Shown in pieces: positions 26,916-51,992 of a DNA stretch of 58,045 nt (position 1 is its first letter; the number at the start of each line of letters is the position of its first letter). The stretch is from contig JANPLN010000039.1 in assembly GCA_031426555.1 (NCBI GenBank), positions 1 through 58,045 on the forward strand. Direction: 5' to 3'. Under the pieces are notes generated by a model. It was not told where the DNA came from. It worked only from the letters and a program-made list of their open reading frames with translations, and did no database searches. A program made the position numbers and the translations under genes. The DNA comes from Bdellovibrionales bacterium. Its GTDB lineage: Bacteria; Bdellovibrionota; Bdellovibrionia; Bdellovibrionales; JAGQZY01.

Positions 26916-26930
26916 GTCCAAAAGAAGTAC
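26916..26930. promoter_or_regulatory. Candidate bEBP upstream activating sequence
   Basis: GTCC-AAAAGAA-GTAC; weaker second site GAGT-ATTATTT-GTAC at 26939-26953. Confidence 0.65.
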
Positions 26931-26990
26931 GTTTGCTTGAGTATTATTTGTACCTGTGTTAACTAAATTCTAAGCGTTTAGGAGGATTAC

Positions 26991-28421
26991 ATGAAATCAT
27001 ATATTGGTAAGACCGTAGCGGTGGTAGATGACGACGTTGATGTGCAAGAGCTTGTGGAGGCATTCTTTCGCCAAAAAGACTTTAAAGTTTTGGTTTATGG
27101 AGATGCGGAAACTGCCATGGAAGCATTGGAGGCAGACCCTGCAGTTTGGGATGTGGCTTTGGTTGATTTGCACTTGCCAAAGATGAGCGGTTTGGATTTT
27201 ACTTTGGCGGCAAAGAAGATCACGCAAAACCTTCCCATTATTTTAATCACCACAAGCAAATCTGCAGAAATGGCCGTGGATGCCATCGAAAAAGGGGCCT
27301 ACGATTTTATTGTAAAACCCATTCACTTTCCACAGCTGTATATATCGGTGCAACGCGGACTGCATTTTAAAAATCTGCAAGGCGATATTTCGGATTTACG
27401 AACCCATGTCAAAAATCTCAAAAATCCCCACGGAGCGATCATTGGCAAGAGCCCACGATTTCTCGATGCTTTAAATATTTCGAAACGTGTGGCGCCAAGT
27501 ACAACCAACATTTTTATTTCTGGAGAGAGCGGTACCGGGAAAGAAGTTTTTGCAAAGTACATCCACAATGAAAGCGCCCGAAAAAAGGGACCCTTTGTTG
27601 CCATCAATTGCTCGGCGATTCCTGAGAATCTTCTGGAGTCAGAACTTTTCGGTCATGCAAAGGGCGCCTTTACAGGAGCTCAAGATAAAAAAATCGGTCT
27701 TTTTGAAGAAGCTGAAGATGGAACGCTTTTTTTAGACGAAATCGGCGATCTCAGTTTGCCTTTGCAAGCAAAAATCCTGCGAGTTCTGCAAGAGAAAAAA
27801 ATTAAACGAGTGGGCGAAAATCAACAGCGCGCCGTCAACTGCCGAATCATCTCGGCAACCCATAAGGATTTAATCAGCGAAATCAAACACGGTCGGTTTC
27901 GTGAGGATTTGTATTTTCGGTTGAAGGTGATCCCAATCCATCTGCCGCCACTCCGCGAACGCCGTGAAGATATTTTACCTCTGGCAGAATCATTCATGCG
28001 TAAGTTTTCGTTAGAAAATGGTTCGCCTGCTAAAAAGTTCTCAACGGAAGCCATCGAGTTTTTGCTCTCTAATTCCTGGAGAGGAAATGTTCGCGAGCTC
28101 GAAAACGCCGTGGAAAGAGCCGTTGTTATTGCCATGGGCGAAGAGATCTTACAAAAAGACTTTATGTTAGATCAATTTGAATCTGTGGATTTTTCCGAAG
28201 ACTCAATGTTAGACGTATCTAAGATGGAAACAAAAGGGTTCTACGTTCCTTACAGTGCGGACAATATCATAACGCTTGAAGAAGTGATGAATCGGTACAT
28301 CGAGTACACCGTTAAAAAGAACAATGGCGCGCGCGATAAAACGGCCCGCGAAATAGGGATCGACCGCAAAACCCTGTACAAACGATTGTCAAAAGCCAGC
28401 GAATCAACATTGGAAAACTAG
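26991..28421 (+). CDS. NtrC/AtoC-type sigma54-dependent response regulator (REC-AAA+-Fis HTH)
   Basis: VVDDD...LVDLHLP...KP receiver; GESGTGKE; ESELFGHAKGAFTGA; LFLDEIGD; WRGNVRELEN; IGIDRKTLYKRL. Confidence 0.96.
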   Translation: MKSYIGKTVAVVDDDVDVQELVEAFFRQKDFKVLVYGDAETAMEALEADPAVWDVALVDLHLPKMSGLDFTLAAKKITQNLPIILITTSKSAEMAVDAIEKGAYDFIVKPIHFPQLYISVQRGLHFKNLQGDISDLRTHVKNLKNPHGAIIGKSPRFLDALNISKRVAPSTTNIFISGESGTGKEVFAKYIHNESARKKGPFVAINCSAIPENLLESELFGHAKGAFTGAQDKKIGLFEEAEDGTLFLDEIGDLSLPLQAKILRVLQEKKIKRVGENQQRAVNCRIISATHKDLISEIKHGRFREDLYFRLKVIPIHLPPLRERREDILPLAESFMRKFSLENGSPAKKFSTEAIEFLLSNSWRGNVRELENAVERAVVIAMGEEILQKDFMLDQFESVDFSEDSMLDVSKMETKGFYVPYSADNIITLEEVMNRYIEYTVKKNNGARDKTAREIGIDRKTLYKRLSKASESTLEN

Positions 28422-28435
28422 CATGCACAAAAAGA

Positions 28436-28461
28436 AAGAGGTGACGGGGTGGTCACCTCTT
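28436..28461. terminator. Hairpin between convergent genes
   Basis: AAGAGGTGAC-N6-GTCACCTCTT. Confidence 0.7.
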
Positions 28462-28484
28462 AAGATGGGATGGGCGGGTGGGAG

Positions 28485-29147
28485 CTAGTTTCTCAACGCA
28501 AATATTAATGCGTGTGAGGCTTTGCTAGGGAATTTCATCTTGTCTGCAGAAGTGGGCAACCCCGCGGCAACAAGTGAATTCTTAATCTTACTATCTTGTG
28601 TGTTTAACCAATCCGAAACTGTCGACGGCTGTTGCGCCATGCTATGAGTTTCTACAGTCACATTTTTAAGAGTCTTTACAAATTTAGAAATCGTTTCGTT
28701 ACGCTTTTTGGCAAGATCCAATTGTTTTGGAGACAGTTTATCTTTTTGTTCTGAAGGGTACTCTTGGTCACCCCAGGCGAGAACAATCACTTGGTCCAGC
28801 TTATTTTTATCCATCTTACTCAAATTCATCAAATTACGGATAGATGCTTTGGATTCTGCAGTAAGCTTTGACGAATTTTGTGGGAATTTAATCTCGACAA
28901 AACTGTGGGCGTCCACTTTTTCGGCAGTGGTTTCGGAAATCGCCGCGCCCTCTTGCTCACTGGTGTAAGGCTCTCGAGGACCATCCGAAGTGCTAACCCC
29001 GCCAGGCTTTGTCGAAGCACAGGCTACAATAAATGCCGTGCAAACACACAGCGCCATAAACCCAACAAATGATTTTTTAAAGAATACATCTCGAACCTTT
29101 ACAACATCTTTTTGCTTTTGTGGCTGCGAATTTTTTTGTGACTGCAT
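28485..29147 (-). CDS. Hypothetical lipoprotein with a degenerate OmpA-C-like domain
   Basis: IVAC lipobox; VEIKFPQNSSKLTAESKASI...LAKKRNETI. Confidence 0.7.
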   Translation of the reverse strand: MQSQKNSQPQKQKDVVKVRDVFFKKSFVGFMALCVCTAFIVACASTKPGGVSTSDGPREPYTSEQEGAAISETTAEKVDAHSFVEIKFPQNSSKLTAESKASIRNLMNLSKMDKNKLDQVIVLAWGDQEYPSEQKDKLSPKQLDLAKKRNETISKFVKTLKNVTVETHSMAQQPSTVSDWLNTQDSKIKNSLVAAGLPTSADKMKFPSKASHALIFALRN

Positions 29148-29220
29148 GATGGCGCTCCTTGTCTGTAAAGACTTATTTTTTGCTGTTTGATAAATTTATC
29201 AATATTGATCAAACATTAAG

Positions 29221-29235
29221 GCAATTGGAATGCCA
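29221..29235 (-). promoter_or_regulatory. sigma54 -24/-12 promoter
   Basis: Minus strand TGGCAT-TCCAA-TTGC. Confidence 0.8.
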
Positions 29236-29285: not shown

Positions 29286-29320
29286 GTTCAATTAAAGTAC
29301 TTTAGGTGGAAATTTGGAAC
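29286..29320. promoter_or_regulatory. Two candidate bEBP upstream activating sequences
   Basis: GTTC-AATTAAA-GTAC (29286) and GTGG-AAATTTG-GAAC (29306). Confidence 0.6.
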
Positions 29321-29401: not shown

Positions 29402-31003
29402 ATGAACACGTTCAAAATCTTAATAGTCGATGATCAAGAGAATGATGTCTCTCGGTTGATGCAAGCACTGGAGCACCCCTCGGTCGCGTTTATATCAGCG
29501 ACCAGCGGGATCGAGGCTTTACGCATTCTAGCAAGTTCACCAGATATCGAACTGGCCTTGGTAGACACACAGATGCCGGGGATGAATGGGTTTGAGCTTG
29601 CCACAAAGATGCGAAATGTGGATCAAACAAGGCACATTCCAATTATGTTTTTAACAGAAAATATGACGTCGCATGAGTACGAGTTTAAAGTTTACGAGGC
29701 GGCGGCCACGGATATCCTCGCTAAACCAGTGAATGTAGAAATATTGAAATCAAAAATCGATGTCTTCAAAAAATTGCGCGAAAAACGACTCGCAGTTGAG
29801 GAAAAAGTCGTGATGCTTGAAAAAGTAACCCAGGACTTAGTAGAGGCGCGTAAAATAGCTGAAGAAGCAGATCAGGCGAAATCGGCATTTCTGGCGAATA
29901 TGAGCCACGAGATTCGAACTCCCATGTCTTCGATCCTGGGTTTCGCAGACCTTATTAAAAATAGTCGACTTGAGCCTGATAAAGTCAGCAGTTATATTGA
30001 TATCATTATCCGAAACGGCAAGCACTTGCTGGACATCGTCAACGACGTCCTCGATCTATCAAAGGTCGAAGCGGGGCAACTCAACGTAGATATTGCAAAT
30101 GTAAATTTAAAAAAGCTCATAGAGGAAGTGGTCCTTTTTTTAAGCAGTGTCGCAGAGTACAACAACGTGACTTTAAAAATGGGAGACTGCTTTAAGGAAG
30201 ACATTGTTATAAAAGCCGATTCGACACGTTTGAAGCAAGTTTTAATTAACTTGATTGGAAATTCCATTAAGTTTTCAAAAGGTGGAACGGTCCTAATTGA
30301 TTGTCAGATCGCACAGACCACCATAGATATCATCATCGAGGATAACGGGATTGGAATTCCCATCGAGAAGCAAAGGCAACTCTTTATTCCTTTTAGTCAA
30401 CTCACCGACTGCAATGAACTCACTATGCGGGGAACGGGTTTGGGCCTCTGTCTTTCAAAAAAATTAATGCAAAATATGAACGGAGATATCTTGCTCGAAC
30501 GCTCGGAGCCAAACCAGGGAACAACTTTTCTGGTGCGCACCTTGCTTGGGGATTCCCATATTGCAGAATTTTCCCCCATCCAAACGCGGACGCCCATCGA
30601 AAAAGAGTGTCTAAAGGATCGAAAAATTTTTGTTGTGGACGATTCGAAAGACAATCAAATGTTGCTGCAGATAATGCTCGAAAAGTATGGAGCCACCATT
30701 GACTTTGCAGAAGACGGACAACAGGCAGTGGAGCAAGTGAATAACAAGCAGTTTGACATTGTTCTGATGGATTATAAAATGCCGGTTATGGATGGATTTG
30801 AGGCCACTCAAAATATAAGAATGAGTGGAAACTCGGTGCCTATCATATTACTCACCGCTAATGCGATGAAGGGCGAAAGAGAAAAGTCGTTGCAAGCCGG
30901 GGCTGATGCCTACATTTCCAAGCCCATCGATTGGAGCGCACTGCTTCAATCAATTCTTTCTCTCGTCGAACCTAATGTAAAAAATGCTGAGACTACTTTA
31001 TGA
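29402..31003 (+). CDS. Cytoplasmic hybrid histidine kinase REC-HisKA-HATPase-REC
   Basis: [48 protein letters not shown]; probable ATG 29402 (ORF track 29306). Confidence 0.94.
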   Translation: MNTFKILIVDDQENDVSRLMQALEHPSVAFISATSGIEALRILASSPDIELALVDTQMPGMNGFELATKMRNVDQTRHIPIMFLTENMTSHEYEFKVYEAAATDILAKPVNVEILKSKIDVFKKLREKRLAVEEKVVMLEKVTQDLVEARKIAEEADQAKSAFLANMSHEIRTPMSSILGFADLIKNSRLEPDKVSSYIDIIIRNGKHLLDIVNDVLDLSKVEAGQLNVDIANVNLKKLIEEVVLFLSSVAEYNNVTLKMGDCFKEDIVIKADSTRLKQVLINLIGNSIKFSKGGTVLIDCQIAQTTIDIIIEDNGIGIPIEKQRQLFIPFSQLTDCNELTMRGTGLGLCLSKKLMQNMNGDILLERSEPNQGTTFLVRTLLGDSHIAEFSPIQTRTPIEKECLKDRKIFVVDDSKDNQMLLQIMLEKYGATIDFAEDGQQAVEQVNNKQFDIVLMDYKMPVMDGFEATQNIRMSGNSVPIILLTANAMKGEREKSLQAGADAYISKPIDWSALLQSILSLVEPNVKNAETTL

Positions 31004-31013: not shown

Positions 31014-31304
31014 TTAATTTTGGGCAGCGATTTTTTCCTGAGCGGATTGAAGCCAAACTTTATATCGGTTAAGGAGTTCGCCACCTTCCGACGTAAGGGT
31101 GTCCGGCGTGAGGTCTTCCATTTGAGAAGCTATTGGAACGAGTTCATCAAAACCGAAGCTGGGGGCGTTGCCAACCAACTGATGGCCAATACGATTGAAT
31201 TCTTTCACAGAATTTTCGGAAATGCTCTTTTGCAAGGTGTCCACATCAATGGCTCTGCGTTGCAGGTAGGTCTCGATGACTTCTTTAGGTAAATCCATGT
31301 CCAT
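31014..31304 (-). CDS. Stand-alone Hpt phosphotransfer protein
   Basis: RIGHQLVGNAPSFGFDEL Hpt motif. Confidence 0.88.
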   Translation of the reverse strand: MDMDLPKEVIETYLQRRAIDVDTLQKSISENSVKEFNRIGHQLVGNAPSFGFDELVPIASQMEDLTPDTLTSEGGELLNRYKVWLQSAQEKIAAQN

Positions 31305-31400: not shown

Positions 31401-31415
31401 GTACTTTTTTGGTAC
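31401..31415. promoter_or_regulatory. Candidate bEBP upstream activating sequence
   Basis: GTAC-TTTTTTG-GTAC. Confidence 0.65.
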
Positions 31416-31454: not shown

Positions 31455-31470
31455 TGGCCTGCGTATTGCG
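31455..31470 (+). promoter_or_regulatory. sigma54 -24/-12 promoter
   Basis: TGGCCT-GCGTA-TTGCG. Confidence 0.75.
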
Positions 31471-31518: not shown

Positions 31519-31959
31519 ATGAGCACGCACAAACAAAAAGTTTTAATCATCGAAGACGATAAGGACATGGCAGCCGTCATTAAGTACCGCATTGAATCCT
31601 ATGGTGGAGCTTACTGCGATATCGTCAGCGACCCGTACGAAGCTCTAAACCTGCTCAGCGATTCTGCTTACGATATGGTGCTCGTGGATCAAAAGCTGCC
31701 GGGGATGTTGGGTTCCAATGTGTTAACACAGGTGGACCGCTTTATTGATATCGACCCCACGCTTTCCGAGCTTCAACGTTTTAGTCAAAAAATTCCTGTG
31801 ATCCTAATGTCTGGCGCTCCAATTAAATTGGGAAGTCGTTACCGCCTTAAGCATTTTAGCATTCGAAAAATTCTCGACAAAAAAACCGAGCTTGCCTCGT
31901 ACCTCAAACAGACTTTTGGCGAGCCCAAACCTTTTCAGCAAATTGAAGCCATAGCGTAA
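31519..31959 (+). CDS. Single-domain response regulator, paralogue of 25014..25463
   Basis: VLIIEDD, DMVLVDQKLPGMLG, IPVILMSG. Confidence 0.85.
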   Translation: MSTHKQKVLIIEDDKDMAAVIKYRIESYGGAYCDIVSDPYEALNLLSDSAYDMVLVDQKLPGMLGSNVLTQVDRFIDIDPTLSELQRFSQKIPVILMSGAPIKLGSRYRLKHFSIRKILDKKTELASYLKQTFGEPKPFQQIEAIA

Positions 31960-31991
31960 TTTTAAACAGCAACAAGCAAAAAGGAGAAGTT

Positions 31992-32156
31992 ATGAACAAA
32001 ACAAATCTAGAAAATTTTAAAAAATTAGACAAAAAATTATCTGTCACTCAAAGAATCATCGATAATCAACAGGGAAAGATCGGCTACCTAGTGGCCTGGA
32101 TGCTCGGAGTTCCCGCTTCTTTGTTGTTTGTGATTTTTCTATTCCGTGGCGGATAA
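31992..32156 (+). CDS. Unannotated 54-aa single-TM small protein
   Basis: AAGGAG RBS; MNKTNLENFKKLDKKLSVTQRIIDNQQGKIGYLVAWMLGVPASLLFVIFLFRGG; below the ORF-track cutoff. Confidence 0.75.
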   Translation: MNKTNLENFKKLDKKLSVTQRIIDNQQGKIGYLVAWMLGVPASLLFVIFLFRGG

Positions 32157-32230
32157 CTTTAGGCCACTTTAATTGAAGCGACTTAATTTGATTAGCAACT
32201 AACTACAACTAACTTTTAGAGGAGAAAAAA

Positions 32231-32521
32231 ATGAATAAAGATATCGTAAAAGGAAAATGGCTCGAAATTAAAGGCGAAGTGCAAAAAGCGTGGGGAAAAC
32301 TCACCAACGACGAACTCGATAAAACTGAAGGCGACATGAAAGCTGTTGCTGGTTTAATTCAGCAAAAATACGGCGAAACCAAAGACGGTTTTCAAGACAA
32401 ACTCGATGGGATCTACGGTCGTTTTGTCGATGCTAAAGATAATGTAGCAGAAACGGTTAAGGACACCCTACGCAAGCCCGAAGACAAGGCGACGCCAACT
32501 GTAACAACTGGACAGTATTAA
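32231..32521 (+). CDS. csbD: CsbD/YjbJ-family general stress protein
   Basis: MNKDIVKGKWLEIKGEVQKAWGKLTNDEL...GLIQQKYG. Confidence 0.93.
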   Translation: MNKDIVKGKWLEIKGEVQKAWGKLTNDELDKTEGDMKAVAGLIQQKYGETKDGFQDKLDGIYGRFVDAKDNVAETVKDTLRKPEDKATPTVTTGQY

Positions 32522-32576
32522 TTTTAACAACACGAAGTGATTTTAAACTCATCAAATAAATAAAGGAAAAAATTAT

Positions 32577-32894
32577 ATGAACAACCAAACGAATTATAAC
32601 GACACGATGAACGGTGCAACCAAAGCAGCGAAAGACATTAAAAAGAACGCTGAGGGTAAAGCCATGGAATACGGAAGCGAGATCAACAAATTTAGTGAAG
32701 AGGCTGGTAAAAGAGTTGGCGACGTTGCTTCGCAAGTAAAGTCTGTGGCCGACGAGTACATGGCTTCGGGTCGTGAGTATATGGAACGTAGCCAAGAATA
32801 CGTTAAATCAAATCCAGAGCGCAGCCTTGCCATGGCATTAGGTGTTGGCGCAGTAATCGGTGGACTTGTCGTTTTTGCTTTTCGCAAGAAGTAA
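32577..32894 (+). CDS. DUF883 (ElaB/YqjD/YgaM-like) tail-anchored stress protein
   Basis: YVKSNPERSLAMALGVGAVIGGL + basic RKK tail. Confidence 0.85.
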   Translation: MNNQTNYNDTMNGATKAAKDIKKNAEGKAMEYGSEINKFSEEAGKRVGDVASQVKSVADEYMASGREYMERSQEYVKSNPERSLAMALGVGAVIGGLVVFAFRKK

Positions 32895-32908
32895 GTTTAG
32901 CGTTGCAA

Positions 32909-32936
32909 ACCCAGCTCTCTATAAAAAGAGCTGGGT
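32909..32936. terminator. Intergenic stem-loop without U-tract
   Basis: ACCCAGCTCT-N8-AGAGCTGGGT. Confidence 0.55.
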
Positions 32937-32956
32937 AAGCAATCAAGGAGGTCATT

Positions 32957-33169
32957 ATGATAAATTTCATTTTTCTTAAATTAAAAGAGTTTTGGCAAAG
33001 GACTTCGTATTACTTAAATTGTCATTTGTGTAACCGACTTTTTAGTAAATCTCTGAAGAATAAAGACTGCCTCCAGGCAGCTCGACGAAGTGATCAAAAC
33101 GGCAACTACGACATCGATGGGGTCTCTTTTGACGGAAACCATACTTTCGTTAATGGAAAGCTTCATTGA
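32957..33169 (+). CDS. Hypothetical 70-aa protein
   Basis: AAGGAGG RBS; operon context. Confidence 0.55.
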   Translation: MINFIFLKLKEFWQRTSYYLNCHLCNRLFSKSLKNKDCLQAARRSDQNGNYDIDGVSFDGNHTFVNGKLH

Positions 33170-33219
33170 ATTAAGTTGATAAAAATCCCAAAAATTTAAA
33201 CAGCTCTGAAGGAGCCACT

Positions 33220-33816
33220 ATGTTCACAAAAAAAATATTTCTTCTCATAAGCTTATTTACATCACTTGCGATGGTAACCGCGGTAGGGTCAGCCGAAGAT
33301 GTTGTTGAATCTTCCGCGGGCTCCATCATTTCGGAACCACGCGCACCCGCAACCGAGGGAGAATTTAAACCGCATCTAGGATTTCTTCTTGGGCTTTCTA
33401 ACCCCGAGGGGGCCTATTCTTCTGGTGCTGAAATCGGGATAACAATGGGGTATCAGTTTTACATTCCTTACTCCTTAGGTTTCGAATTGTCGTCGGTAGG
33501 CAACGAGGCGAGTTCCGACTCCGCTGAACTACGCAGAACAAAAGTTCTTGCACAGCTCGCCTATAACTTTGCGGGCAATATTCCCGTGCTTTCAAAATCC
33601 TACGTGGGTTTCGCCATGGGGCCGATGCTCGAATCCTTCCGCGGTGACGACGATGTTGTTTGGGGTGTTATGCCCATCGTTGGCTTTGATATTCCCCTCG
33701 GCGGTGGTAATACTGAGAATGATTTTACACTTGGCGGCAACGCACGGTATCTTATAAGTTCCAGTGGTCTGCCCAATGTTTTTTCAACCAATGTGGCTGC
33801 GAAGTATTGGTTCTAA
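33220..33816 (+). CDS. Small outer-membrane beta-barrel protein
   Basis: Signal peptide; beta-strand pattern; ends AKYWF. Confidence 0.8.
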   Translation: MFTKKIFLLISLFTSLAMVTAVGSAEDVVESSAGSIISEPRAPATEGEFKPHLGFLLGLSNPEGAYSSGAEIGITMGYQFYIPYSLGFELSSVGNEASSDSAELRRTKVLAQLAYNFAGNIPVLSKSYVGFAMGPMLESFRGDDDVVWGVMPIVGFDIPLGGGNTENDFTLGGNARYLISSSGLPNVFSTNVAAKYWF

Positions 33817-33819
33817 ACA

Positions 33820-34770
33820 ATGAGTATTAAATTTTTTAAGGCGAGATCGCTTTCCTGGGTCAGTTTAATCACTGGCCTTTTTGTATTTGGGTTACTCTGC
33901 AAACCAGCAACATCGCACGCAGCCTCCATTGGCTCAGAAGCAGAACCAGCACAAACGGTGCAAAAAGACGACTTAATGCCGGGGAGTTCTTCTCTTAATA
34001 AAACTTTAAAAAACCGCTATTCTTTTTTCCTGCACAAACGAAACTATCTTTTACCTCTCAGTTATAACTGGCAGCCCCACAACGAGCTCTACAGTGGTAT
34101 CGCTCCGCAAAACAATGGAGCCAATCCCTTTTACGAAAAAACCGAAGCTGAATTTCAGATTAGTTTTTTTGCTCCATTAATCGAGAATGTTGTTTTTGAG
34201 GATTTTGATCTCCTCTTGGCGTACACACACCATGCCTGGTGGCAGCTCTACAACTCATCGTGGTCAAAGCCCTTTCGCGAAACCAATTATGCTCCCGAGT
34301 TGTTTTTTAGAAAATCCATCGAATTGAACGAGGGAAATGTGAAGCGTTTTCTTTTTTTGGATGCGGGTTATATTCACGAATCAAACGGACAGTTTGAAAC
34401 CCTGTCGAGGAGTTGGAATCGTGTCTTTTTTCGCACCCACTTAAGCACCAAAAATTTTTTGGTTGTTTTTTCCACCTGGTATCGCCTACCGGAAGAAGAA
34501 AATCAGGATGAGAACCCTGGTATTCAGGATTATTACGGTTACGGGGATATCGCTCTCTTTTATTCGTTAAGAAGCCACACGGTGGATCTTAAACTTCCGT
34601 TTTCCAAAAGTCCCGGATTAGAAATTGGTTACTCGTATCCGATTAAAGATTTTTATCGTCTGTACGTGAATTACAAATACGGCTACGGCCATTCGTTAAT
34701 TGAGTATAACAAAACCATCGAACGTTTTGGAATCGGAATCACCCTTGAAGGTGGAATGGATCGTCGGTAG
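33820..34770 (+). CDS. pldA: Outer-membrane phospholipase A
   Basis: EFQISF, WWQLYN, PFRETNYAPE, catalytic HESNG, SRSWNR, GYGHSLIEYN. Confidence 0.93.
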   Translation: MSIKFFKARSLSWVSLITGLFVFGLLCKPATSHAASIGSEAEPAQTVQKDDLMPGSSSLNKTLKNRYSFFLHKRNYLLPLSYNWQPHNELYSGIAPQNNGANPFYEKTEAEFQISFFAPLIENVVFEDFDLLLAYTHHAWWQLYNSSWSKPFRETNYAPELFFRKSIELNEGNVKRFLFLDAGYIHESNGQFETLSRSWNRVFFRTHLSTKNFLVVFSTWYRLPEEENQDENPGIQDYYGYGDIALFYSLRSHTVDLKLPFSKSPGLEIGYSYPIKDFYRLYVNYKYGYGHSLIEYNKTIERFGIGITLEGGMDRR

Positions 34771-34854
34771 TGGAAAAAGCGGTACTGCAACACGTTTTTT
34801 CGTGGAAAATATAGCCGTCTAAATATTAAATTCGTTTTTAAGCCCTCTCGCCCC

Positions 34855-34870
34855 CGGCACATGGTTTGCT
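34855..34870 (+). promoter_or_regulatory. sigma54 -24/-12 promoter
   Basis: CGGCAC-ATGGT-TTGCT; weaker UAS TGGA-AAAAGCG-GTAC at 34771-34785. Confidence 0.78.
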
Positions 34871-34937
34871 CTCTTAGTTAGTCAGCGAGTACGGAACGTG
34901 GTTGTTCCCGAAACAGCAAACCAACCAAGGAGTGTTT

Positions 34938-35153
34938 ATGCAACAGAAAAACGACAATCAAAAAGATGTAGAAAAAAAACAAACTGCCGGTGGCCAACAA
35001 GATCAACAACCTAATAAAGGCTTCGAAAAACCAGCACGCCGTGATGAAGATTTAGATGAAGAAGACGATCAAAGCATCGAGCAAGCTCCGTCTCGTGAAA
35101 CAGATGCGCTCAATAAAAATCGAGAACCGAAAGATAAAAAATCTAAAGTGTAG
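34938..35153 (+). CDS. Small, highly hydrophilic, probably disordered protein
   Basis: AAGGAG RBS before ATG 34938 (ORF track 34902); Q/K/D/E-rich. Confidence 0.7.
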   Translation: MQQKNDNQKDVEKKQTAGGQQDQQPNKGFEKPARRDEDLDEEDDQSIEQAPSRETDALNKNREPKDKKSKV

Positions 35154-35236
35154 TAACAGCCTAGAGAGTGGCCCCAAGCGTCTCCCCCCGATAGCGGGGC
35201 TAACCTCTACTGTTTCTTATTTAAAAAGGAGTATAT

Positions 35237-35626
35237 ATGAGACTATTTAGAAATATGACGGTGGCACTTGCTCTCGTTTTTGGATTGTTTGTGTCACACA
35301 ACTCTTTAGCGGCCCCCTTAGTCGCTGTTGAGGACTCCACAGCCCTCAACGCAAAAGACGCTGACGGAACTACAAAGACCCCGCTTGATCAAATGAAGGG
35401 TAGCGACAAGGATATTGAAACCACTCGGCAGATTCGCCAAGCTTTGATGGACGACAGCTCTTTGTCGACGAACGCACGAAATGTAAAAGTAATCACTCTT
35501 AAGAACAAAGTCACCATTCGTGGTGCAGTGAATTCCAGTGATGAGCTTCGCCGTGTTGTGAGTCTTGCTAAAACTACGGCATCAAAAGATTCTCAGGTTG
35601 TCCACGACTTAAACGTCGTTGAATAA
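35237..35626 (+). CDS. BON-domain (OsmY-like) periplasmic protein
   Basis: DIETTRQIRQALMDDSSLSTNARNVKVIT...VTIRGAVNS. Confidence 0.9.
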   Translation: MRLFRNMTVALALVFGLFVSHNSLAAPLVAVEDSTALNAKDADGTTKTPLDQMKGSDKDIETTRQIRQALMDDSSLSTNARNVKVITLKNKVTIRGAVNSSDELRRVVSLAKTTASKDSQVVHDLNVVE

Positions 35627-35705
35627 AATTGATGAATAAAACTGTTGAATAAAACTGCAGAGTCATCGGTCTTTGAATAATCAACTAACAGTATTAGGAG
35701 TTTTT

Positions 35706-36350
35706 ATGGAAAATAATAAAAAAGAATTAACAAACTCAGTTTTCGGCATTTTTCAAACGCAAATCGCGTTGGAATTTTGTATTACCAAATTAAAAGAAAA
35801 AGGATTTTTTGGTGCAGATATTTCTGTTCTGATGCCTTCAAAGTCAGAGACTAAGACTTTTGCCCACGAAAACTCCACAAAATCCCCAGAGTTTGCCTCT
35901 GGTGGTGCAGCCGGCGGTGCCGTGCTGGGTGGTGTGCTCGGATGGCTTGCTGGAATCGGCACTTTGGCCATTCCAGGAGTTGGTCCCTTTATCGCCGCAG
36001 GTCCGATAGTCGCAGCACTTTCGGGTGCTGGAATCGGTGGCGCCATCGGTGGAATTTCGGGTGCACTCGTAGGCCTTGGAGTGCCAGAGTACGAAGCAAA
36101 ACGCTACGAATCCTTAGTCAATGCCGGCGGGATGTTGCTGTCGGTGCATGTAGGCACTTCCACATTGCAGGATTCTGCGATGGACATTCTAAAACAGTGT
36201 GGTGCGTCTGATATCAGCGTTAAAAAAGAATCTAAAGGGTCCGATATTGATAAAGACGATCGCCCTGATCGCACGGACGCTATTGCCGTGACTCGGGCGC
36301 AATCAAATATTCCGCCAGAATTGCACGTTAACACCTCAAGACCTATTTAG
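35706..36350 (+). CDS. General stress membrane protein (YflT/DUF3341-like)
   Basis: GGVLGWLAGIGTLAIPGVGPFIAAGP...GLGVPEYEAKRYE; AGGAG RBS before ATG 35706 (ORF track 35673). Confidence 0.85.
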   Translation: MENNKKELTNSVFGIFQTQIALEFCITKLKEKGFFGADISVLMPSKSETKTFAHENSTKSPEFASGGAAGGAVLGGVLGWLAGIGTLAIPGVGPFIAAGPIVAALSGAGIGGAIGGISGALVGLGVPEYEAKRYESLVNAGGMLLSVHVGTSTLQDSAMDILKQCGASDISVKKESKGSDIDKDDRPDRTDAIAVTRAQSNIPPELHVNTSRPI

Positions 36351-40599: not shown

Positions 40600-40618
40600 A
40601 CATAAGAGGGAGGCATCA

Positions 40619-42186: not shown

Positions 42187-42210
42187 ATAAATGGGAAGCG
42201 AGGGCAAAGC

Positions 42211-43488
42211 ATGCGCACGAATAATAACGAAGTTTATGTACTGGGCAGTTCACGGGTTCCCTTTGTAAAAAGCCAAACAACCTACAGCAACACAAAACGC
42301 AAAGAGCTCATGGTGGCCGCCTTAAATGGTCTGGTGGAGCGCTATAAACTCAGCGGGGTGTTGATCGACGACACCGCTCTGGGAGCGGTGATGAATGGGT
42401 CGGCTGATTTTAATTTAGCCCGCGAAGCCATCCTGTCGACGGCTGTGCATCCAGATTCTCCCGGAGTGAATGTGCAGCGCGCCTGCGGAACAGGGCTTGA
42501 GGCCGCTTGGCTGATTGCTATGAAGGCGCACACAGGTTCCATCGACCTTGGCATCGCAGGCGGTGTGGACACAAACAGCGATCTCCCCATCGAAGTTTCG
42601 GACGAGCTGCAAAAAATCCTCCTCGGCGCCAACAAAGCAAAAACCTTCGGCGAAAAATTCAGCGTTTTTAAAGATCTTCGCCCATCGCACTTTAAACCCA
42701 AAGCGCCCAGTGTGGATGAGCCCCGCACACATCTATCCATGGGTGACCACACTGAATTAATGGTGAAGGAATGGAAAATTCCTCGTCAGGCCCAAGACGA
42801 ATTAGCTCTGCGCAGCCATCAGCGTTCGGCCAAGGCCTACGACGAAGGTTTTTTTGACGACCTCGTGGTTCCTTTTTTGGGCCTTAAACGCGATGGAATT
42901 TTACGGGCCGATACAACCATCGAAAAGCTTGCTAAACTCAGACCCGCCTACGACAAAGTGAATGGAACATTAACGGCTGGAAACAGCACCGCTCTTACAG
43001 ACGGAGCCGCCAGTGTGCTCATCGCCAACTCCGCGGGAGCAAGCCGCATTGGCGCAAAGCCGCTCGCCAAGTTTATAGACTTTCAAACAGCTGCTGTGGA
43101 CTTTCCAAAAGGCGCGGGGCTTTTAATGGCTCCCACCAAAGCGGTGGCGCAGTTGCTCATGCGCAATAAACTCACGTTTCAAGATTTTGATTTTTTCGAA
43201 ATCCACGAAGCCTTCGCCGGCCAAGTGCTTTGCAATCTCAAAGCCTGGGAATCCGCCGAGTACTGCAAAAATGTTTTAGGCTTGCAAGCTCCCCTGGGGC
43301 CCGTCGATGTAAGCAAACTCAACGTGGTGGGTAGTAGTTTGGCCCAAGGCCATCCCTTTGCAGCCACAGGTGCGCGCATCGTTGGCGTGCTTGCAAAATT
43401 ATTAAGTCGTAGCGGCAAAAAGCGCGGCCTCATTTCCATTTGCACCGCCGGTGGAATGGGAGTTGCGGCCATTATGGAGTCAGTCTAG
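42211..43488 (+). CDS. Acetyl-CoA C-acyltransferase (thiolase)
   Basis: QRACGTG, EIHEAFA, GHPFAATG, SICTAGGMG. Confidence 0.95.
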   Translation: MRTNNNEVYVLGSSRVPFVKSQTTYSNTKRKELMVAALNGLVERYKLSGVLIDDTALGAVMNGSADFNLAREAILSTAVHPDSPGVNVQRACGTGLEAAWLIAMKAHTGSIDLGIAGGVDTNSDLPIEVSDELQKILLGANKAKTFGEKFSVFKDLRPSHFKPKAPSVDEPRTHLSMGDHTELMVKEWKIPRQAQDELALRSHQRSAKAYDEGFFDDLVVPFLGLKRDGILRADTTIEKLAKLRPAYDKVNGTLTAGNSTALTDGAASVLIANSAGASRIGAKPLAKFIDFQTAAVDFPKGAGLLMAPTKAVAQLLMRNKLTFQDFDFFEIHEAFAGQVLCNLKAWESAEYCKNVLGLQAPLGPVDVSKLNVVGSSLAQGHPFAATGARIVGVLAKLLSRSGKKRGLISICTAGGMGVAAIMESV

Positions 43489-46134: not shown

Positions 46135-46149
46135 GTTCGTTTTTTGGAC
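46135..46149. promoter_or_regulatory. Candidate bEBP upstream activating sequence
   Basis: GTTC-GTTTTTT-GGAC, 49 nt before the sigma54 box. Confidence 0.6.
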
Positions 46150-46198: not shown

Positions 46199-46214
46199 TG
46201 GCTTCGGCTTTGCT
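46199..46214 (+). promoter_or_regulatory. sigma54 -24/-12 promoter
   Basis: TGGCTT-CGGCT-TTGCT. Confidence 0.72.
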
Positions 46215-46271: not shown

Positions 46272-46559
46272 ATGTTTTTACAATTAAATCCACCCATTCC
46301 AGTGGAAACCTCGAAGGGTCCTGGTATCGCTCATTTTTTGGTAGATTATTCCGTTGAGCATGATCTCTATTGGGTTGTTTTTCTGGACAACTCCGGCGAA
46401 TGTTGGACTTTAAATAACAAGGAAATTCGTGCGCAAAAAAACATCTCGATCGGAAGACATCATGTCGAATCTTTTAATAAAATCCCTCCAAATACGCACA
46501 AGTCCATCCCACCTGCAACCACGGTGCACTCAACCACGGTGCACTTTGGAAGATCTTAA
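46272..46559 (+). CDS. Small hypothetical protein
   Basis: AAGGAG RBS; MFLQLNPPIPVETSKGPG...SGECWT. Confidence 0.75.
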   Translation: MFLQLNPPIPVETSKGPGIAHFLVDYSVEHDLYWVVFLDNSGECWTLNNKEIRAQKNISIGRHHVESFNKIPPNTHKSIPPATTVHSTTVHFGRS

Positions 46560-46564
46560 AACCC

Positions 46565-47389
46565 ATGGGGTCTGAATTTTTAAAAAAAAGATTTTCCAAT
46601 CTAATTTCGCAAATCAACGAGCACGATATCTACATGCTGGCCTCTTCGCTCGCCTTTAATTTAGTGCTCGCCGTGGCGCCGTTTTTAATTCTTCTTTTGA
46701 TTGGCGCAGCGCTTTTGCCGGCGTTTTACAAATCCCTCGTGGTTGCGGAGTCGCAGAACATGCTGGGTCCCGATGCTGGCACCTTTATGGGCTTGATTGT
46801 TCGCGGCGCCGAAAACAATCAGTATTACAGCGGGATCAGCGGATACATTTCGTTAGTGGTGATTTTGATTTCTGCTTCGTCGATTTTTTCGCAATTGCAG
46901 TATGGAATGGATAAAATTAATGGCACCGAGAGTAGTACAAAACCCTGGAGCCTTTTAGTTTTCCTTAAAGAGCGAGTGGCATTTTTATTTTTTTTATTTG
47001 GCATGGTGGTGCTGATGCTCACGTCCCTTGTGGTGAGCACCTTTGTAAATAGTTTTATGGAGGGAACGCAGGCCCTCGTCTATCTCACATTTTCCTTTGT
47101 GATCACAGTGGCCTTACAAACTTTGGTGTTCGCCTGCATTTTTCATTTTATCCCCACCGAGCGCTTTACGTGGGCGCGAAGTTTTGTTTCGGGCTTTATC
47201 GCCGCCTTATTTTTTGCCATCGGCAAAGAACTGGTGAGTCTTTATTTAGGACGATCTGCAGTGGCCTCGATTTATGGAGCCGCAGGCTCGGCCATTATTT
47301 TTTTGCTGTGGCTGTATTATTGCTCGCTGACTTTTTATATCAGCCACGAATTCACTAATAATTTTTTCTTCAGGAAGAAAACTCGATAA
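46565..47389 (+). CDS. YihY/BrkB-family membrane protein
   Basis: LASSLAF...[21 protein letters not shown]. Confidence 0.9.
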
Positions 47390-50372
47390 ACTTGCTTAAA
47401 CACTCCTGCAGTTTAATTCGATTCACGGGCTTACATAGATACTCATTAAACCCCGCTTCCAAACAGCGCTCACGGTCGCCCTTCATGGCATGGGCCGTGA
47501 GTGCCACCACCGGTCGAGAATACTGGTGCTCTCGCAACTGGTGCACAGCCCCAAACCCATCAAGCTCTGGCATCTGCACATCCATCAGCACCACATCATA
47601 CTTATCGTGAGTGGCCTTTTCCACGCCCTCGATGCCGTTGTGGGCCACTTCGGAGTCCAAGCCCATCATGCGTAAATACGCTTGCGTTAAAATCAAATTA
47701 TCGGGGGCGTCGTCCACCACCAAAACTTTTCCGCGCGCTTTGGGTTGCAAAGACAGAATTTTTCGGTCAGTGGCCTGCGCGGACTGAGCGAGAACTTCCG
47801 GTTGATCGATAAGATCCACTTTCAGCGATACACGAAATCGACTTCCGCGATTTTCATGGCTTTCCTCAAGCACCACGTCGCCTCCCAGTAGCTGCGCAAG
47901 CTTTCGCGATAAAAACAACCCAAGACCAGTGCCGCCAAATTTTCGCGAGGTGGAATCGTCCGCTTGCACAAAAGGCTCAAACAGTCTTGCCGACTGACCG
48001 GGTGTTATGCCGATACCCGTATCGGAAATATGAAACACCAGCACCACTTTGCCCGGATTCGAAAGGTTTTCTTTTTTTAGGTGCACGCTCACACAGCCTT
48101 TATCGGTAAACTTAACGGCGTTCCCCACAATATTTAGCAAAATTTGTCGCAGTCTTAAAGGATCAGTGCTGATGGTGTCGGGAATGTCGTCGGCCACTGT
48201 CACTTTGAGGCCAATATTTTTCTCTTCCGCTTTGATCACCAAAAGCGATTTCACTTCTTCGAGCAAACGTTTTAACGAAAACGAAATTTTATCGATCTGA
48301 ATACGATCCGACTCCACCTTGGCCAGATCCAAAAGCTCGTCCACCAGGCATATCAGCTGGCGCCCATTTCTAACGATGGTCGATGAATAATTATTTTGCT
48401 CTTCGGTAAAATTTTGATTGTCCAAAAGGAGCTCAGCAAAGCCCAGCATGGCGTTGAGCGGCGTTCGGATCTCATGGCTCATGTTGGCTAAAAAGGCACT
48501 TTTCGCACGATTTGCCAACTCGGCGCGATTGAAAAGCTGTGCGTTTTCGATCGCGATGGACGCGCGTTTTGCCAAATCTTGAGCCACCGAAAGGTCGATG
48601 ACGGTAAAACTGGGTTGGGATTTTTTAGAGACCAAAGTCATCGCACCAAAGGTTTTTCCATAACTCGTTAAAGGAACAGTGATGATGGAGCTCGGCTCTG
48701 CCGCAACAATTTGCTCCAAAATCAACTTCGAAAAAAATGTTTTTGCAAGCAGGTCGCGATCGGGCTGCTGATGCAGCTGCGATTTGCCTGTAAGAATCAC
48801 TCCATTGATGCCATCGGTGTCCCTGGAATCTAGAGTGTTTTCCATGCCGGTGTGATCTGCATCGGCATTACAGGTGTGATGCACATTTTTAGAATCATTC
48901 GACAGACAAATCAGATTTGTAATGAGGTTTGTTGACGGCTCGTAAATATCGATCAGGCACCAATCGGCCATCTTATCAATAAGGAGACTGGAAAAGCAAT
49001 GCAGCATGGACTCCATATCCAGCGAACAATTCAGCGACGCGCTGGCCTCCGCCATAAAGGCCAATCGTTCAGCACTTCTTTCCGCCTCGGACCGGGCGGC
49101 CTGGGCCTGCACTAACTCCATACGTTGCTTTTCGGCGATCTTTTTTTGTGTGATGTCTTCGGCGATTCCTAGCAAATACAGGGGGGCGCCGTGTTTATCA
49201 AACAGCGGAATTTTTTTGGTGTGCAGATAACGGAGACCCTGGGTTGTTGTGATGGGTTCGTTATCAATTTCCACAACCTTTCCACCGGCTAAGACCGCGC
49301 GATCCTTTTCGGTAAACGCATCTGCTTCTGCCGCAGGAAAAAAATCATAGTCATTTTTTCCCACCAAGTCCGTACGTTTGTAACCGACGATTTTTTCTCC
49401 GGCTCTGTTAAAACGAATAAAGCGCAAGTCTTTGGCGTCTTTTACAAAAATCATATTTGGAATATTTTCGATCACCAGATCCAAAAACTTTTCAGACTCG
49501 CGCAGCTTTTCCACGGTCGCCGCATTCTCTTGCACCAATCGCGAGAGCTCCTCATTCGACTTCAACAACTGCCGTGTGCGCTCTTGCACTCCGGCCTCTA
49601 AGCGAAGATTTGAGTCGGCTAATGCTTTTTCGGCGAGTTTTCTATCGCTAATATCCAAAACGTACGCCACATTTAAATTGGGCTCAACGCAGGCGGCACC
49701 CACTAGTACGGCCACTCGATGTCCGTTCTTATGAATGTATTCTTTTTCAAAGGGCACAACACTGTGATTGTTTTTTAAATCTTCCAGCGAGCGGTTACTC
49801 ACCGGCATATATTCCGCAGGCGTGAGGTCGCGCCAGGACAAGTGTCCCGCGACCATCTCCTCCCGCGTATAACCCAGAATGCGCGAGATATGATTGTTGA
49901 TATCCAGAATCCGACCCTCAAAATCGCTAAAGATTAAACCAATCAAATTGGATTCAAAAACCCGCTGCAGGCGTTCGTCGCTCTCTTTTAAAGACGCCTG
50001 CGTGTTTTTAAGCTCTCTTAACGAGCGGTCGGCCTGTTTTTTAACTTTTTGCAACCGACTGCAGATAGTAGCAACAATAAGCCCTTCGATAAAAAACAAA
50101 CACATGCGCAAATACCACGTGTTAATGGGATCGTTTGCAAACTTCCACAGAGAAATTGTAGTGAGCATGAGCGACGCCGAAATAACGATGGCGAAAACCC
50201 CTTGAAAAAATCCGCCGTAAAGAGACGCAATGGTAATCGCTAAAAAAAACAAAAGCGTGGGGGATTCGAGACCTGCAACTTCATGAATCAGCAGTTTTAA
50301 AATGAAGGCGACGGTCACCGAAAAGATGGTGAGCAGGTACGGTTTTAATACGCTTAAATCTCTATTTAACAT
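47370..50372 (-). CDS. Membrane hybrid histidine kinase (DUF4118-like TM, 2 PAS, GAF, HisKA, HATPase, REC)
   Basis: [10 protein letters not shown] and [23 protein letters not shown] end; [18 protein letters not shown]. Confidence 0.94.
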
Positions 50373-50430
50373 GCGCGGTAAACTAACTTAGGTTGAGAAA
50401 AATGTCTAACTTGCCGCGCTAGTAAATCTG

Positions 50431-50874
50431 TTAAGTTTTCTCAATATGTGTTGGGGATTCCACAAATGTTAATTGTTTAACATCAATATTCACCGATTTT
50501 AAAAGTTCAATGGACTCCGTGGAGCGATAGGGGTTGCGAAAAAATACTTTTCGAACCCCGCCCAAGTTGATCAACCGTTTTGCGCAGGCCACGCAGGGCA
50601 AATGAGTCACAAAAACATGTTTCTCCAAAGCGCGGGGAGAGTCGCAATTGATAACGGCGTTTTCCTCAGAATGCAAACAGCCGCAGTTGCCCACATCGGT
50701 GCGATCGCACTGATTTGGCAAGCCGGCAGCGTTGCCGTTGTACCCCACCGCAAGAACTTTGCGGTAGTCCGTGGAGGTGATCACGGTGCCCACGTTCAAG
50801 CGGTGGCAGGTGGAGCGTGCGGCCAGCGCCTGGGCAAGCTGCATGTAAATTTCTTCAAAACTTGGACGATTCAT
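50431..50874 (-). CDS. dCMP deaminase-family protein
   Basis: RSTC, GYNG, HSEEN, PCVAC zinc motifs. Confidence 0.9.
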   Translation of the reverse strand: MNRPSFEEIYMQLAQALAARSTCHRLNVGTVITSTDYRKVLAVGYNGNAAGLPNQCDRTDVGNCGCLHSEENAVINCDSPRALEKHVFVTHLPCVACAKRLINLGGVRKVFFRNPYRSTESIELLKSVNIDVKQLTFVESPTHIEKT

Positions 50875-50897
50875 TGTGGGTTTTCCTTAAGCCGTTG

Positions 50898-51836
50898 TCA
50901 TATTCTAGGCACTACCAGTTGTAAAGCCTTGGGTAAGGACTTTACTTCGAGGGGAGCCTCCATATGAAACAGCTCTCCATCCAGGGCCACGTCGTGAGAT
51001 TTGCGTTTTGTATGGATGGTCATTGACCGCATGCAGAAACTTTCCACGTCTTTATCGGAGTTGATCTTGCCGGTCATTCCATGGAACAAAATGCGCAGCA
51101 CAGAGGACCGAGTCACCGGTTTAAATAACACCACAGCCAGCATGTCTTTTTTCATGCAGGCGGCGACGTCGAAATTCAAATTGCTGAGTTGCAGGTAATT
51201 ATTGCCAATAAATATCATGGGGGTCTTGCGCTCCACTGATAAAGTGTCGCCGCCCTGGGCGACTCCATGATCACCGCTTTCGAATTTTGCGTGCAGGAGG
51301 CGCTGGGAACTTAGCATGCTCTTCAGCGTAGAGAGAGTAGCCACCAAGCGATTGCGGCCAAAGCGTTTGGTATTTTGCTCGCGCTCGGCAATGGACTTTG
51401 CATACAAGCCCACGCTGGCATTGATTAAAAACATATGGCCGTTAACTTCGCCAAGGCGAACGGCTTTCACATCGCCGGTCAGCGCATCGCGAATGGCCTG
51501 TTCGGGCACTTCCGAAAGTTTGTGAGTGCGTGCAAAAAAATTAAACGTGCCGATGGCAATAGCGCCAAAGCGCACATCGGCTAAGGCCGCGGCTTCGGCC
51601 ACCGCGCGAATGGTGCCGTCGCCGCCAGCGGCTAAAACAACGCCACCGTCGTCGGCGGCGTGGTTCACAGCTACTTGGATTTGTTTTTTAAACTGCTCTG
51701 CATCTGTCGGAGAGTAGGTCACAAGCTGGCGGCCCAGCTCATCGCAGATCTTTTGCGCGATCACCGGGATGTCTTCGCCAAGGCCCTTTCCAGAGCGAGT
51801 GTTGGCAATCAAATAAACACGATTGTTCACAGTCAT
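50898..51836 (-). CDS. Diacylglycerol/lipid kinase family protein (YegS-like)
   Basis: NTRSG, AGGDGT, GTFNFFA, DGE. Confidence 0.9.
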   Translation of the reverse strand: MTVNNRVYLIANTRSGKGLGEDIPVIAQKICDELGRQLVTYSPTDAEQFKKQIQVAVNHAADDGGVVLAAGGDGTIRAVAEAAALADVRFGAIAIGTFNFFARTHKLSEVPEQAIRDALTGDVKAVRLGEVNGHMFLINASVGLYAKSIAEREQNTKRFGRNRLVATLSTLKSMLSSQRLLHAKFESGDHGVAQGGDTLSVERKTPMIFIGNNYLQLSNLNFDVAACMKKDMLAVVLFKPVTRSSVLRILFHGMTGKINSDKDVESFCMRSMTIHTKRKSHDVALDGELFHMEAPLEVKSLPKALQLVVPRI

Positions 51837-51892
51837 GCCGCCAAGTATTCCTTAGAGCAAGAATAAGGTCAATTGAGTTGATTTTGGCTCAA

Positions 51893-51992
51893 GTGGAAAA
51901 TGCGTACTTTTTGTTTTTTTATGGATAAAAATTTCTCAGATAGCAAGGCAGGTCCACGGAAAAAGGCACACGCGCAAGGCATCTACATTGCA
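51893..51992 (+). promoter_or_regulatory. Candidate UAS plus sigma54 promoter
   Basis: GTGG-AAAATGC-GTAC (51893-51907) and AGGCAT-CTACA-TTGCA (51977-51992). Confidence 0.58.

Follow-up and report, generated by a model that had tools for sequence, protein, structure and literature searches.

In a 58,045-nucleotide stretch of DNA from a Bdellovibrionales bacterium (the whole stretch is called the window below), a set of 15-bp palindromes lies upstream of promoters of the sigma54 type. In our assessment these are probably the enhancer sites (upstream activating sequences) of the NtrC-family activator that is encoded at 26991-28421, the binding being predicted from the letters of the DNA. Through them, the activator would turn on a general-stress regulon that depends on sigma54. 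The window is contig C39 of genome G000 (3.14 Mb, 72 contigs), which has one sigma54 gene and ten genes for bacterial enhancer-binding proteins (bEBPs). The region at 24-54 kb, referred to as the cluster, encodes the activator, two hybrid kinases, an Hpt protein and two single-domain receivers together with DUF1328, CsbD, DUF883/ElaB-like, BON/OsmY-like, OmpA-like, PqiB/PqiA, hemerythrin, DUF748, YihY and AI-2E genes.

The motif, its promoters and its specificity

A first-pass annotation of the window had listed ten 15-mers as one enhancer motif, GTNS-N7-GDAC, upstream of seven sigma54 promoters. All ten (10/10) were found in place, and their gaps to the -24 box, which are given in nt for each site below, were correct. 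The asymmetric form did not hold, as the motif is a 15-bp palindrome, GT(A/T/C)C-W7-G(A/T/G)AC, in a G-N13-C frame and with G(T/G)GG as an alternative half-site. Nine of the ten sites belong to it, scoring 8.6-17.5 bits with a matrix of 54 sites from relatives, which is partly circular because these sites were first picked with the window's matrix, and the site at 34771 (-11.8 bits) does not. Every one of the seven promoters does have a good site, yet the one that serves the promoter at 34855 is at 34802 and not at 34771. The predicted sites and promoter boxes are the following.

26852-26867, minus strand: sigma54 -24/-12 box of the DUF1328 operon; 17.8 bits; conserved
26916-26930: enhancer site proximal to this divergent promoter; gap 48 to 26867; leave-one-out 11.0 bits
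26939-26953: second, weaker site, 23 bp from the first; gap 71; 8.6-9.7 bits (leave-one-out 3.2)
29220-29235, minus strand: sigma54 box of the OmpA-like gene; 18.0 bits; conserved
29286-29320: two sites, 29286-29300 and 29306-29320; gaps 50 and 70 to 29235; 13.5 and 14.5 bits (leave-one-out 11.1 and 11.6); conserved
31401-31415: enhancer site; gap 39 to 31455, retained in relatives; 12.7 bits (leave-one-out 12.1)
31455-31470, plus strand: sigma54 box of the receiver/CsbD/DUF883 operon
34770-34785: degenerate site (listed as 34771); gap 69 to 34855; leave-one-out -6.8 bits; one extra base compared with the relatives' loci L032 and L071
34802-34816: enhancer site missing from the earlier list; gap 38; 10.3-11.9 bits; conserved
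34855-34870, plus strand: sigma54 box of the small acidic protein/BON operon
36427-36471: two sites 15 bp apart, 36427-36441 and 36457-36471; gaps 79 and 49 to 36521; 17.5 and 13.7 bits (leave-one-out 16.0 and 9.5); conserved
36521-36536, plus strand: sigma54 box of the PqiB/PqiA-hemerythrin operon
46135-46149: enhancer site; gap 49 to 46199, retained in G001-G004; 12.8 bits (leave-one-out 11.5)
46199-46214, plus strand: sigma54 box of a 95-aa open reading frame (ORF) and YihY
51893-51907: site of the least supported unit; gap 69 to 51977; 9.7-9.9 bits (leave-one-out 6.0)
51977-51992, plus strand: sigma54-like box before a 34-codon ORF and the DUF2779 gene

Palindromic form, centres about 72-115 bp upstream of the predicted start of transcription and the GG-N10-GC promoters make it likely that the sites are sigma54 enhancers, with binding as a prediction. 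Six of the seven promoter units are shared with close relatives; the unit at 51893/51977 is absent from the syntenic place in L071 and L072, because synteny breaks there. The site at 26916 is unchanged in 4/4 aligned sequences, while its spacer is variable. The letters at 34771 are identical in one public DNA sequencing run, which may be the source, and no RNA run was among the sequencing runs listed. Two plus-strand GG-N10-GC boxes at 29353 and 29373 could share the sites at 29286 and 29306, yet they are 2-4 bp off phase.

The pair at 26916/26939 sits 37-75 bp before the start of the activator gene and had been taken as a sign of autoregulation. This suggestion is not supported in that form, since a pair of gaps of 46-48 and 69-71 was found again at the DUF1328 promoters of distant relatives, and an enhancer role at the divergent DUF1328 promoter thus accounts fully for the two sites. 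The box scan of the region upstream of the activator gene found no sigma54 box facing it, and the search for a sigma70 promoter gave two matches, compared with 1.5 +/- 1.1 by chance. One sigma70-like match, at 26881-26909, would place the start of transcription close to the first site, an arrangement that would allow repression.

The motif is not equally common elsewhere in the genome. A score of at least 9.7 bits was reached at 7/7 boxes of the cluster, compared with 4/75 of the remaining sigma54-like boxes (p 1.3e-5); among gene-upstream windows of the genome, 17 of 1215 score as high. A strict pattern fitted to the window sites has only 16 matches in 3.14 Mb, ten of them intergenic and five of these in the cluster. 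In a search of 41 genomes with a strict pattern, 14 had a match, and these were mostly close kin. Moreover, relatives yielded the motif again de novo when the window was excluded, both by counting dyads against shuffles and by expectation-maximisation (EM). In 85 upstream regions of the core clade GT-N11-AC was the top 2-bp dyad (47 occurrences against 26.7 in shuffles), and EM converged on GTtCAAAAAat.CaC; in the more distant clades the 15-bp G-N13-C frame came out again, with half-sites of the form GGGG(C/A), and mixed sites were common. No other conserved enhancer emerged from the dyad count or EM in the upstream regions of the relatives. It could be argued that A/T-rich chance matches were picked after the fact, as the motif is degenerate (10-12 bits), has 280 matches of at least 10 bits genome-wide and one listed site fails. 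This was refuted by the held-out tests and is highly improbable in view of the recovery in held-out loci, the conservation of the sites against a varying spacer, the phasing and the functional coherence of the targets.

The LexA box of Alphaproteobacteria is GTTC-N7-GTTC, and the sites bear a superficial likeness to it, with lexA itself lying in the window at 11692-12348. However, the upstream region of lexA reaches at most 1.6-2.9 bits, the motif is inverted and not direct, the sites lie 38-80 bp upstream of the promoters and do not overlap them, and the targets are not of the SOS type (no individual scan was made of recA and further SOS promoters). That the sites are LexA boxes was rejected, as no motif site precedes lexA, and is scarcely credible. 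Short inverted repeats unlike the motif are present at 12349-12434, upstream of lexA, and form a candidate LexA operator.

Helical phasing of the sites

The earlier observation that the gaps are about one helical turn apart was borne out, with the ten listed gaps alone giving a Rayleigh Z of 7.7 at 10.5 bp (p ~5e-4). When the window-trained matrix was applied to held-out loci, sites were found at 57 of 223 intergenic boxes, and the gaps peaked at 46-50, 57-61, 69-71 and 77-83. The window was then excluded and EM was run from a neutral seed on the 199 boxes of 80 loci; it yielded 220 sites at gaps of 30-100, and their best period was 10.6 bp (Z 67.5, p at most 0.001; the 99th percentile of the null is 8.9). 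A stricter threshold left 113 sites (Z 36.7), and dropping the DUF1328 promoters left 205 (Z 60.6). The union EM matrix behind the 220 sites is dominated by the GGGG type, scores several window sites low (-1.5 to 9.4) and was used for phasing only. Similar results were obtained in other orders, where 20 loci with 69 boxes gave 54 sites with a period of 10.5 bp (Z 13.7). The peaks of this order are at 38, 49, 59, 70 and 80, and those of the other orders (L211-L230) are about 2 bp longer, near 40, 51, 62, 73 and 84. A caution against our interpretation is that the loci are related, so that site counts overstate independence, and that sites in G-runs can be counted twice in adjacent registers, which inflates Z; despite this inflation, the peaks are parted by near-empty troughs. 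In a 96%-identical relative, there is an exact 10-bp insertion between the sites and the DUF1328 promoter, which changes the gap from 48 to 58 and keeps the phase.

Assuming the standard -24 position, the site centres are near -72, -83, -93, -104 and -115. A minimum enhancer distance of roughly 70 bp, slightly shorter than these, was reported for NtrC, and a dependence on the face of the helix was described, in the available part of that paper (PMC7408454). Because the centres are just about 72-115 bp from the start, the loop would be short and confined to a single helical face, and spacing would drift in whole turns. The IHF consensus, with at most two mismatches allowed, was not enriched in the spacers (65 of 112, compared with 70.4 in shuffles); the genome has three HU/IHF-family genes. 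Intrinsic phasing of A-tracts in the spacers was also considered and set aside, as the A/T periodicity of about 10 bp was weak, its amplitude (0.03) being close to that of control promoters lacking a site (0.02-0.03).

The activator and other candidate binders

The protein encoded at 26991-28421 matches PF00072 (REC), PF00158 (sigma54 AAA+) and PF02954 (Fis-type helix-turn-helix, HTH), all above the cut-off. Its receiver residues (D15, D59, K109), the ATPase motifs GESGTGKE (178), GAFTGA (225), LFLDEI (246) and RFREDLYFRL (302) and the helix IDRKTLYKRL (457) are intact, and the REC, Walker, GAFTGA and HTH motifs are conserved in 41 aligned homologues. Among 81 homologues, the loop reads GAFTGA in 42 and GSFTGA in 36, with no match in three. 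The best PDB relatives are NtrC1, LuxO, NtrC4 and ZraR, and a search with the HTH only gave weak matches to ZraR. An alignment-based model (predicted local distance difference test, pLDDT, 87.7) had NtrC1, NtrX and NtrC4 as its best folds, which confirms the family only; the single-sequence prediction was uninformative (pLDDT 35). Among the named NCBIfam equivalogs (AtoC, NtrC, ZraR, LuxO, NtrX, GlrR), the activator was below every cut-off, e.g., 415 of 714 for AtoC and 385 of 559 for NtrC. Its closest homologues are 92-98% identical, and a plasmid search gave only generic bEBPs near 40% identity among the matches listed. At least 177 of 384 genomes of the order encode a homologue, as do 63 of 251 sampled across the phylum, with many single-contig genomes of genus g24 among them.

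There are good grounds to expect, with considerable confidence, that this activator binds the 15-bp sites; it is the favoured binder because of co-location, a unique recognition helix and the covariation of the half-site with its clade. The D-R-K-T-L-Y helix is invariant in the 41 aligned homologues, and IDRKTLY is found only in this protein among the ten bEBPs of the genome. The motif and its promoters accompany activator homologues in three or more orders with reshuffled gene order, and the half-site is of the GTxC type in the core clade and GGGG elsewhere. A code based on a single residue, K or R at position 464 against the type of half-site (16:2 and 2:28), was rejected, since reversions keep GTxC and the kin are not independent.

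Several further findings weigh against this assignment. The covariation of clade and motif amounts to about one evolutionary event with a tree support of 0.35, and reversions of the helix keep GTxC. In genus g15, the core-clade loci have nine GTxC to nine GxGG sites, the ratio in other g15 loci being 6:36, and several core-clade loci have no site at the thresholds used. Comparing paralogues inside one genome gave few sites per locus. In a comparison of 280 genomes, in which four candidates were scored per genome and split or distant activator copies were missed, composites of motif and promoter occurred at 0.38 per Mb with the activator helix and at 0.24 per Mb without it (controls, 0.14 and 0.08), and the listed composite matches were in phase in both groups (70/110 and 25/40). 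The link between kinases and activator is one of neighbourhood only. Finally, a Fis-like protein and another small HTH_8 protein are encoded in the genome, and the motif agrees with the 15-bp geometry of Fis sites (PMC4784862).

This last point leads to the possibility that the sites bind this Fis-like protein of the nucleoid, or else the other small HTH_8 protein, in an architectural or repressing role and that the activator acts from elsewhere. In the available part of the work on E. coli Fis (PMC4784862), Arg85, which opens the recognition helix, reads G at +/-7 of a 15-bp core that has Y-R steps and an A/T centre, and this geometry explains the frame of our motif while also keeping Fis as a rival. 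The genome has a 98-aa Fis-like gene (C18:42015-42311) whose INRNTLKKK helix aligns by eye with that of the activator, and sites for a DNA-bending protein would be phased too. However, the palindromes differ from Fis sites in an additional T/A at +/-6 and C/G at +/-4, and strong sites go with some of the sigma54 promoters and are not genome-wide: 71 of the 75 other sigma54-like boxes lack one. The generic Fis-type pattern is ubiquitous (2430 matches, 329 intergenic, eight in the cluster against about four expected), and it is the addition of T2/A14 that concentrates it in the cluster (4/41 against about 0.5 expected). Moreover, the half-site changes with the activator clade, and no second conserved enhancer appeared in these regions. 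Binding by a Fis-like protein instead of the activator is therefore very unlikely. A 131-aa stand-alone protein with a Fis-type HTH and a GRATLYRK helix is encoded at L168:557-952 (G000 C32).

Alternatively, the sites could be real enhancers of another of the ten bEBPs, or of several, the phasing being generic to the sigma54 promoters of this lineage. All of the bEBPs have Fis-type helices, in-phase composites also occur in genomes with no detected homologue, and the weak 10-bp A/T periodicity is seen in site-less control promoters as well. In addition, one of two co-located regulators failed to bind according to the available part of a study on Desulfovibrio vulgaris (PMC4641369). On the other hand, site-bearing promoters cluster round the homologue in reshuffled gene orders across orders, the remaining nine bEBPs have different recognition helices, and low-scoring boxes outside the cluster are not phased (21/53 in phase). 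We regard another bEBP as an unlikely binder, and the activator at 26991-28421 is retained as the preferred one.

Some relatives show variants of this protein. In genus g24 (L170:3932-4888, L171:4226-5176, L175:4093-5061, L176:4082-5065), there is a paralogue of about 320 aa that lacks REC, has AAA+ and an IDRKTLYRK helix and adjoins a gene judged by eye to resemble DJ-1/PfpI; a convergent operon of small genes, in L170 and L175, has a sigma54 box with sites at gaps of 37-39 and 60-61. This paralogue may feed the same regulon as a second input. In L177:5218-6686 (G053), the main activator is encoded by two overlapping genes, one for a 163-aa receiver and one for a 326-aa AAA+-HTH protein, and the phased sites are kept. 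Some g15 genomes have two or three members of the activator subfamily within 10 kb of each other (L138 in G173 C29; L144 in G169 C32). In genus g36 (L179:4667 in G120, L180:4721 in G125), a strong GGGG-type site is located between divergent sigma54-like boxes of envelope genes. No activator match was obtained in G125 at E 1e-95, and therefore another regulator may read a related motif there.

The predicted regulon and its relation to known systems

The proposal that the motif can define a regulon was supported, as the sites are enhancer-like and phased and lead to stress-type genes outside the cluster too. Outside the cluster, a site of at least 5 bits accompanies 32 of 92 sigma54-like boxes, and 25 of the 32 are in phase, compared with the 41% expected (p 2e-5). 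Fourteen of these boxes score at least 8 bits; 13 of their targets were scanned, and seven boxes lead to stress-type genes, namely DUF883 (below cut-off), two hemerythrins, DUF421, a transglycosylase-associated (GlsB-type) protein, a triple-BON protein and Ku. The other targets scanned are MotA/ExbB, an EEP-family protein, PGA_cap and three proteins with no family. In relatives, 100 of 105 first genes were scanned, and they included DUF1328 (15), CsbD (12), single receivers (12), OmpA-type proteins (10, several of them below cut-off), hemerythrins (5), ferritin-like proteins (3), and one each of DUF883, hybrid kinase and bEBP; the remainder were spurious or had no assignment. Homologues of DUF1328, CsbD and Hpt lie within about 10 kb of the activator in 41, 38 and 45 of 67 loci, respectively.

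ElaB, OsmY, Ku and DUF421 are families with a role in stress. Profile scans showed that the general-stress gene content comprises the YtjA, YjbJ, ElaB, OsmY, YmgE and Ku families. Of these, ytjA (DUF1328), yjbJ (CsbD) and ymgE are listed as sigmaS-controlled in Salmonella in the part of the source that was available (PMC5437024). The regulon likely comprises at least six operons in the cluster and probably more elsewhere (hemerythrins, GlsB-type, triple BON, DUF421, DUF883, Ku), as predicted from sites and boxes.

Ku and DUF72/Fpg-like genes diverge at L159 (G000 C62:72300-74800), each with a sigma54-like box and a site (gaps 67 and 83), which suggests that they are DNA-repair members of the regulon. 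At L163 (G000 C15:154364-154498), two divergent sigma54-like boxes lie in phase with a single site (gaps 49 and 69) and precede 993-aa and 219-aa proteins with no Pfam family. About 80 intergenic boxes of at least 10 bits in this genome resemble sigma54 promoters, many of them before genes with signal-peptide-like N-termini, and sigma54 seems, by this count, to be widely used by the organism. An Rfam scan of the window gave no matches. The genes of the cluster and their predicted roles are as follows.

23954-25036: AI-2E gene, after the DUF1328 operon
25014-26782, minus strand: DUF1328 operon, predicted target; DUF1328 (26600-26782), secreted 94-aa protein, outer-membrane beta-barrel protein and single-domain receiver
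26991-28421, plus strand: NtrC-family bEBP with REC, AAA+ and Fis-type HTH, likely binder
28485-29147, minus strand: OmpA-like predicted lipoprotein, predicted target; PF00691 E 8e-4, below cut-off
29402-31003, plus strand: cytoplasmic hybrid kinase REC-HisKA-HATPase-REC, candidate relay member
31014-31304, minus strand: Hpt phosphotransfer protein (PF01627 above cut-off), candidate phosphodonor to the bEBP
31519-34770, plus strand: predicted target operon, families from profile scan; single-domain receiver, 54-aa membrane protein, CsbD (32231-32521), DUF883/ElaB-like (32577-32894), 198-aa protein and phospholipase A1
34902-36350, plus strand: small acidic protein, BON and 225-aa membrane protein operon, behind the 34855 box
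36573-43488, plus strand: PqiB/PqiA, hemerythrin, DUF748 and thiolase operon, behind the 36521 box
46272-47389, plus strand: 95-aa ORF and YihY, behind the 46199 box
47370-50372, minus strand: membrane PAS/GAF hybrid sensor kinase, which may head the relay, a link to the bEBP that its neighbourhood suggests
52005-52109 and 52133-54055, plus strand: 34-codon ORF, then the DUF2779 gene, behind the 51977 sigma54-like box

The 34-codon ORF is Lys/Pro-rich, begins about 2 nt past the point where transcription from the 51977 promoter is predicted to start, lacks a ribosome-binding site and was not found in the relatives checked.

In the proposed mechanism, a stress signal would reach a sensor hybrid kinase (47370-50372 and/or 29402-31003) and be passed through the Hpt protein to Asp59 of the activator. 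Dimers of the activator would read each site with the D-R-K-T-L-Y helix, Arg459 contacting the outer G by analogy with Arg85 of Fis, and the phosphorylated activator would oligomerise on one or two sites and remodel the sigma54 holoenzyme through GAFTGA. The receivers and possibly the cytoplasmic kinase would themselves be targets, which would provide feedback. It is likely, judging from the predicted targets, that sigma54 and not a stress sigma factor is the switch for the general stress response of this lineage. Three profile matches to RpoS were found in the genome, all below the curated cut-off; it also encodes sigma factors of ECF (extracytoplasmic function) size, which bear on this question.

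The closest tested analogue is NmpR of Myxococcus xanthus (PMC11841059), by the likeness of site geometry and system layout. According to the available part of that paper, NmpR is an NtrC-like regulator that ends a multi-kinase phosphorelay, as in the candidate relay here, and its 15-bp palindrome, GCGCA-N5-TGCGC, has the same G1/C4/A5 geometry. NmpR sites are paired 14-15 or 5 bp apart (here, 15, 8 and 5), and it acts at seven promoters, including its own locus, with a hemerythrin among the targets, as in our case. In contrast, the half-site here is GTHC or GGGG and not GCGC, with T at position 2 and A, T or C at position 3, which do not match the NmpR consensus, and many promoters have a single strong site. 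The targets of NmpR are oxygen-use genes, whereas those found here are DUF1328, CsbD, ElaB, BON, PqiB, YihY and Ku; no haem or protoglobin domain was present among the Pfam matches of the cluster kinases. Only five of ten predicted NmpR promoters were bound (PMC11841059), and therefore predictions outside the cluster call for caution.

With NtrC at glnAp2 and other group I bEBPs (NtrC1, NtrC4, ZraR, AtoC, LuxO), the activator shares the REC-AAA+-Fis HTH architecture, GAFTGA, upstream palindromes and looping. It differs in that the sites are close, strictly phased over many promoters and show no enrichment of the IHF consensus. The EBP regulons predicted in D. vulgaris were obtained by the same comparative method; there, the EBP genes were co-located with their promoters or divergent from them, most sites fell within 100 nt, and the available part of that study mentions no general-stress regulon (PMC4641369). 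Our literature search, for which subscription journals were mostly out of reach, found neither a sigma54-driven general-stress regulon nor this motif for Bdellovibrionota.

Stress and starvation survival of Bdellovibrio-like predators between prey is poorly mapped, and the motif with its phase rule gives a testable master regulator and a list of targets. If true, the regulon would be readable from sequence in any member of the phylum. The sites are also a natural data set, and an unusually clean one, on how the face of the helix constrains short sigma54 loops. The ElaB, OsmY, Ku and DUF421 families are shared with the RpoS, SigB and EcfG regulons. The same is true of YtjA/DUF1328, YjbJ/CsbD and YmgE (PMC5437024), but here they are preceded by -24/-12 promoters and depend, as predicted, on an ATP-dependent activator. 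We give roughly even chances to the broader proposal that the general stress response of Bdellovibrionota is a fourth architecture, in which a hybrid-kinase/Hpt relay onto one IDRKTLY subfamily of sigma54 activators would replace RpoS, SigB or EcfG, with enhancers at the minimum looping distance, lacking IHF sites and on one face of the helix, and with the half-site switched from GGGG to GTHC together with the activator clade. In comparison with the known systems, the mechanism of activation is textbook, and it is the predicted wiring of a general-stress gene set to sigma54 that has no counterpart among the papers found in our search.

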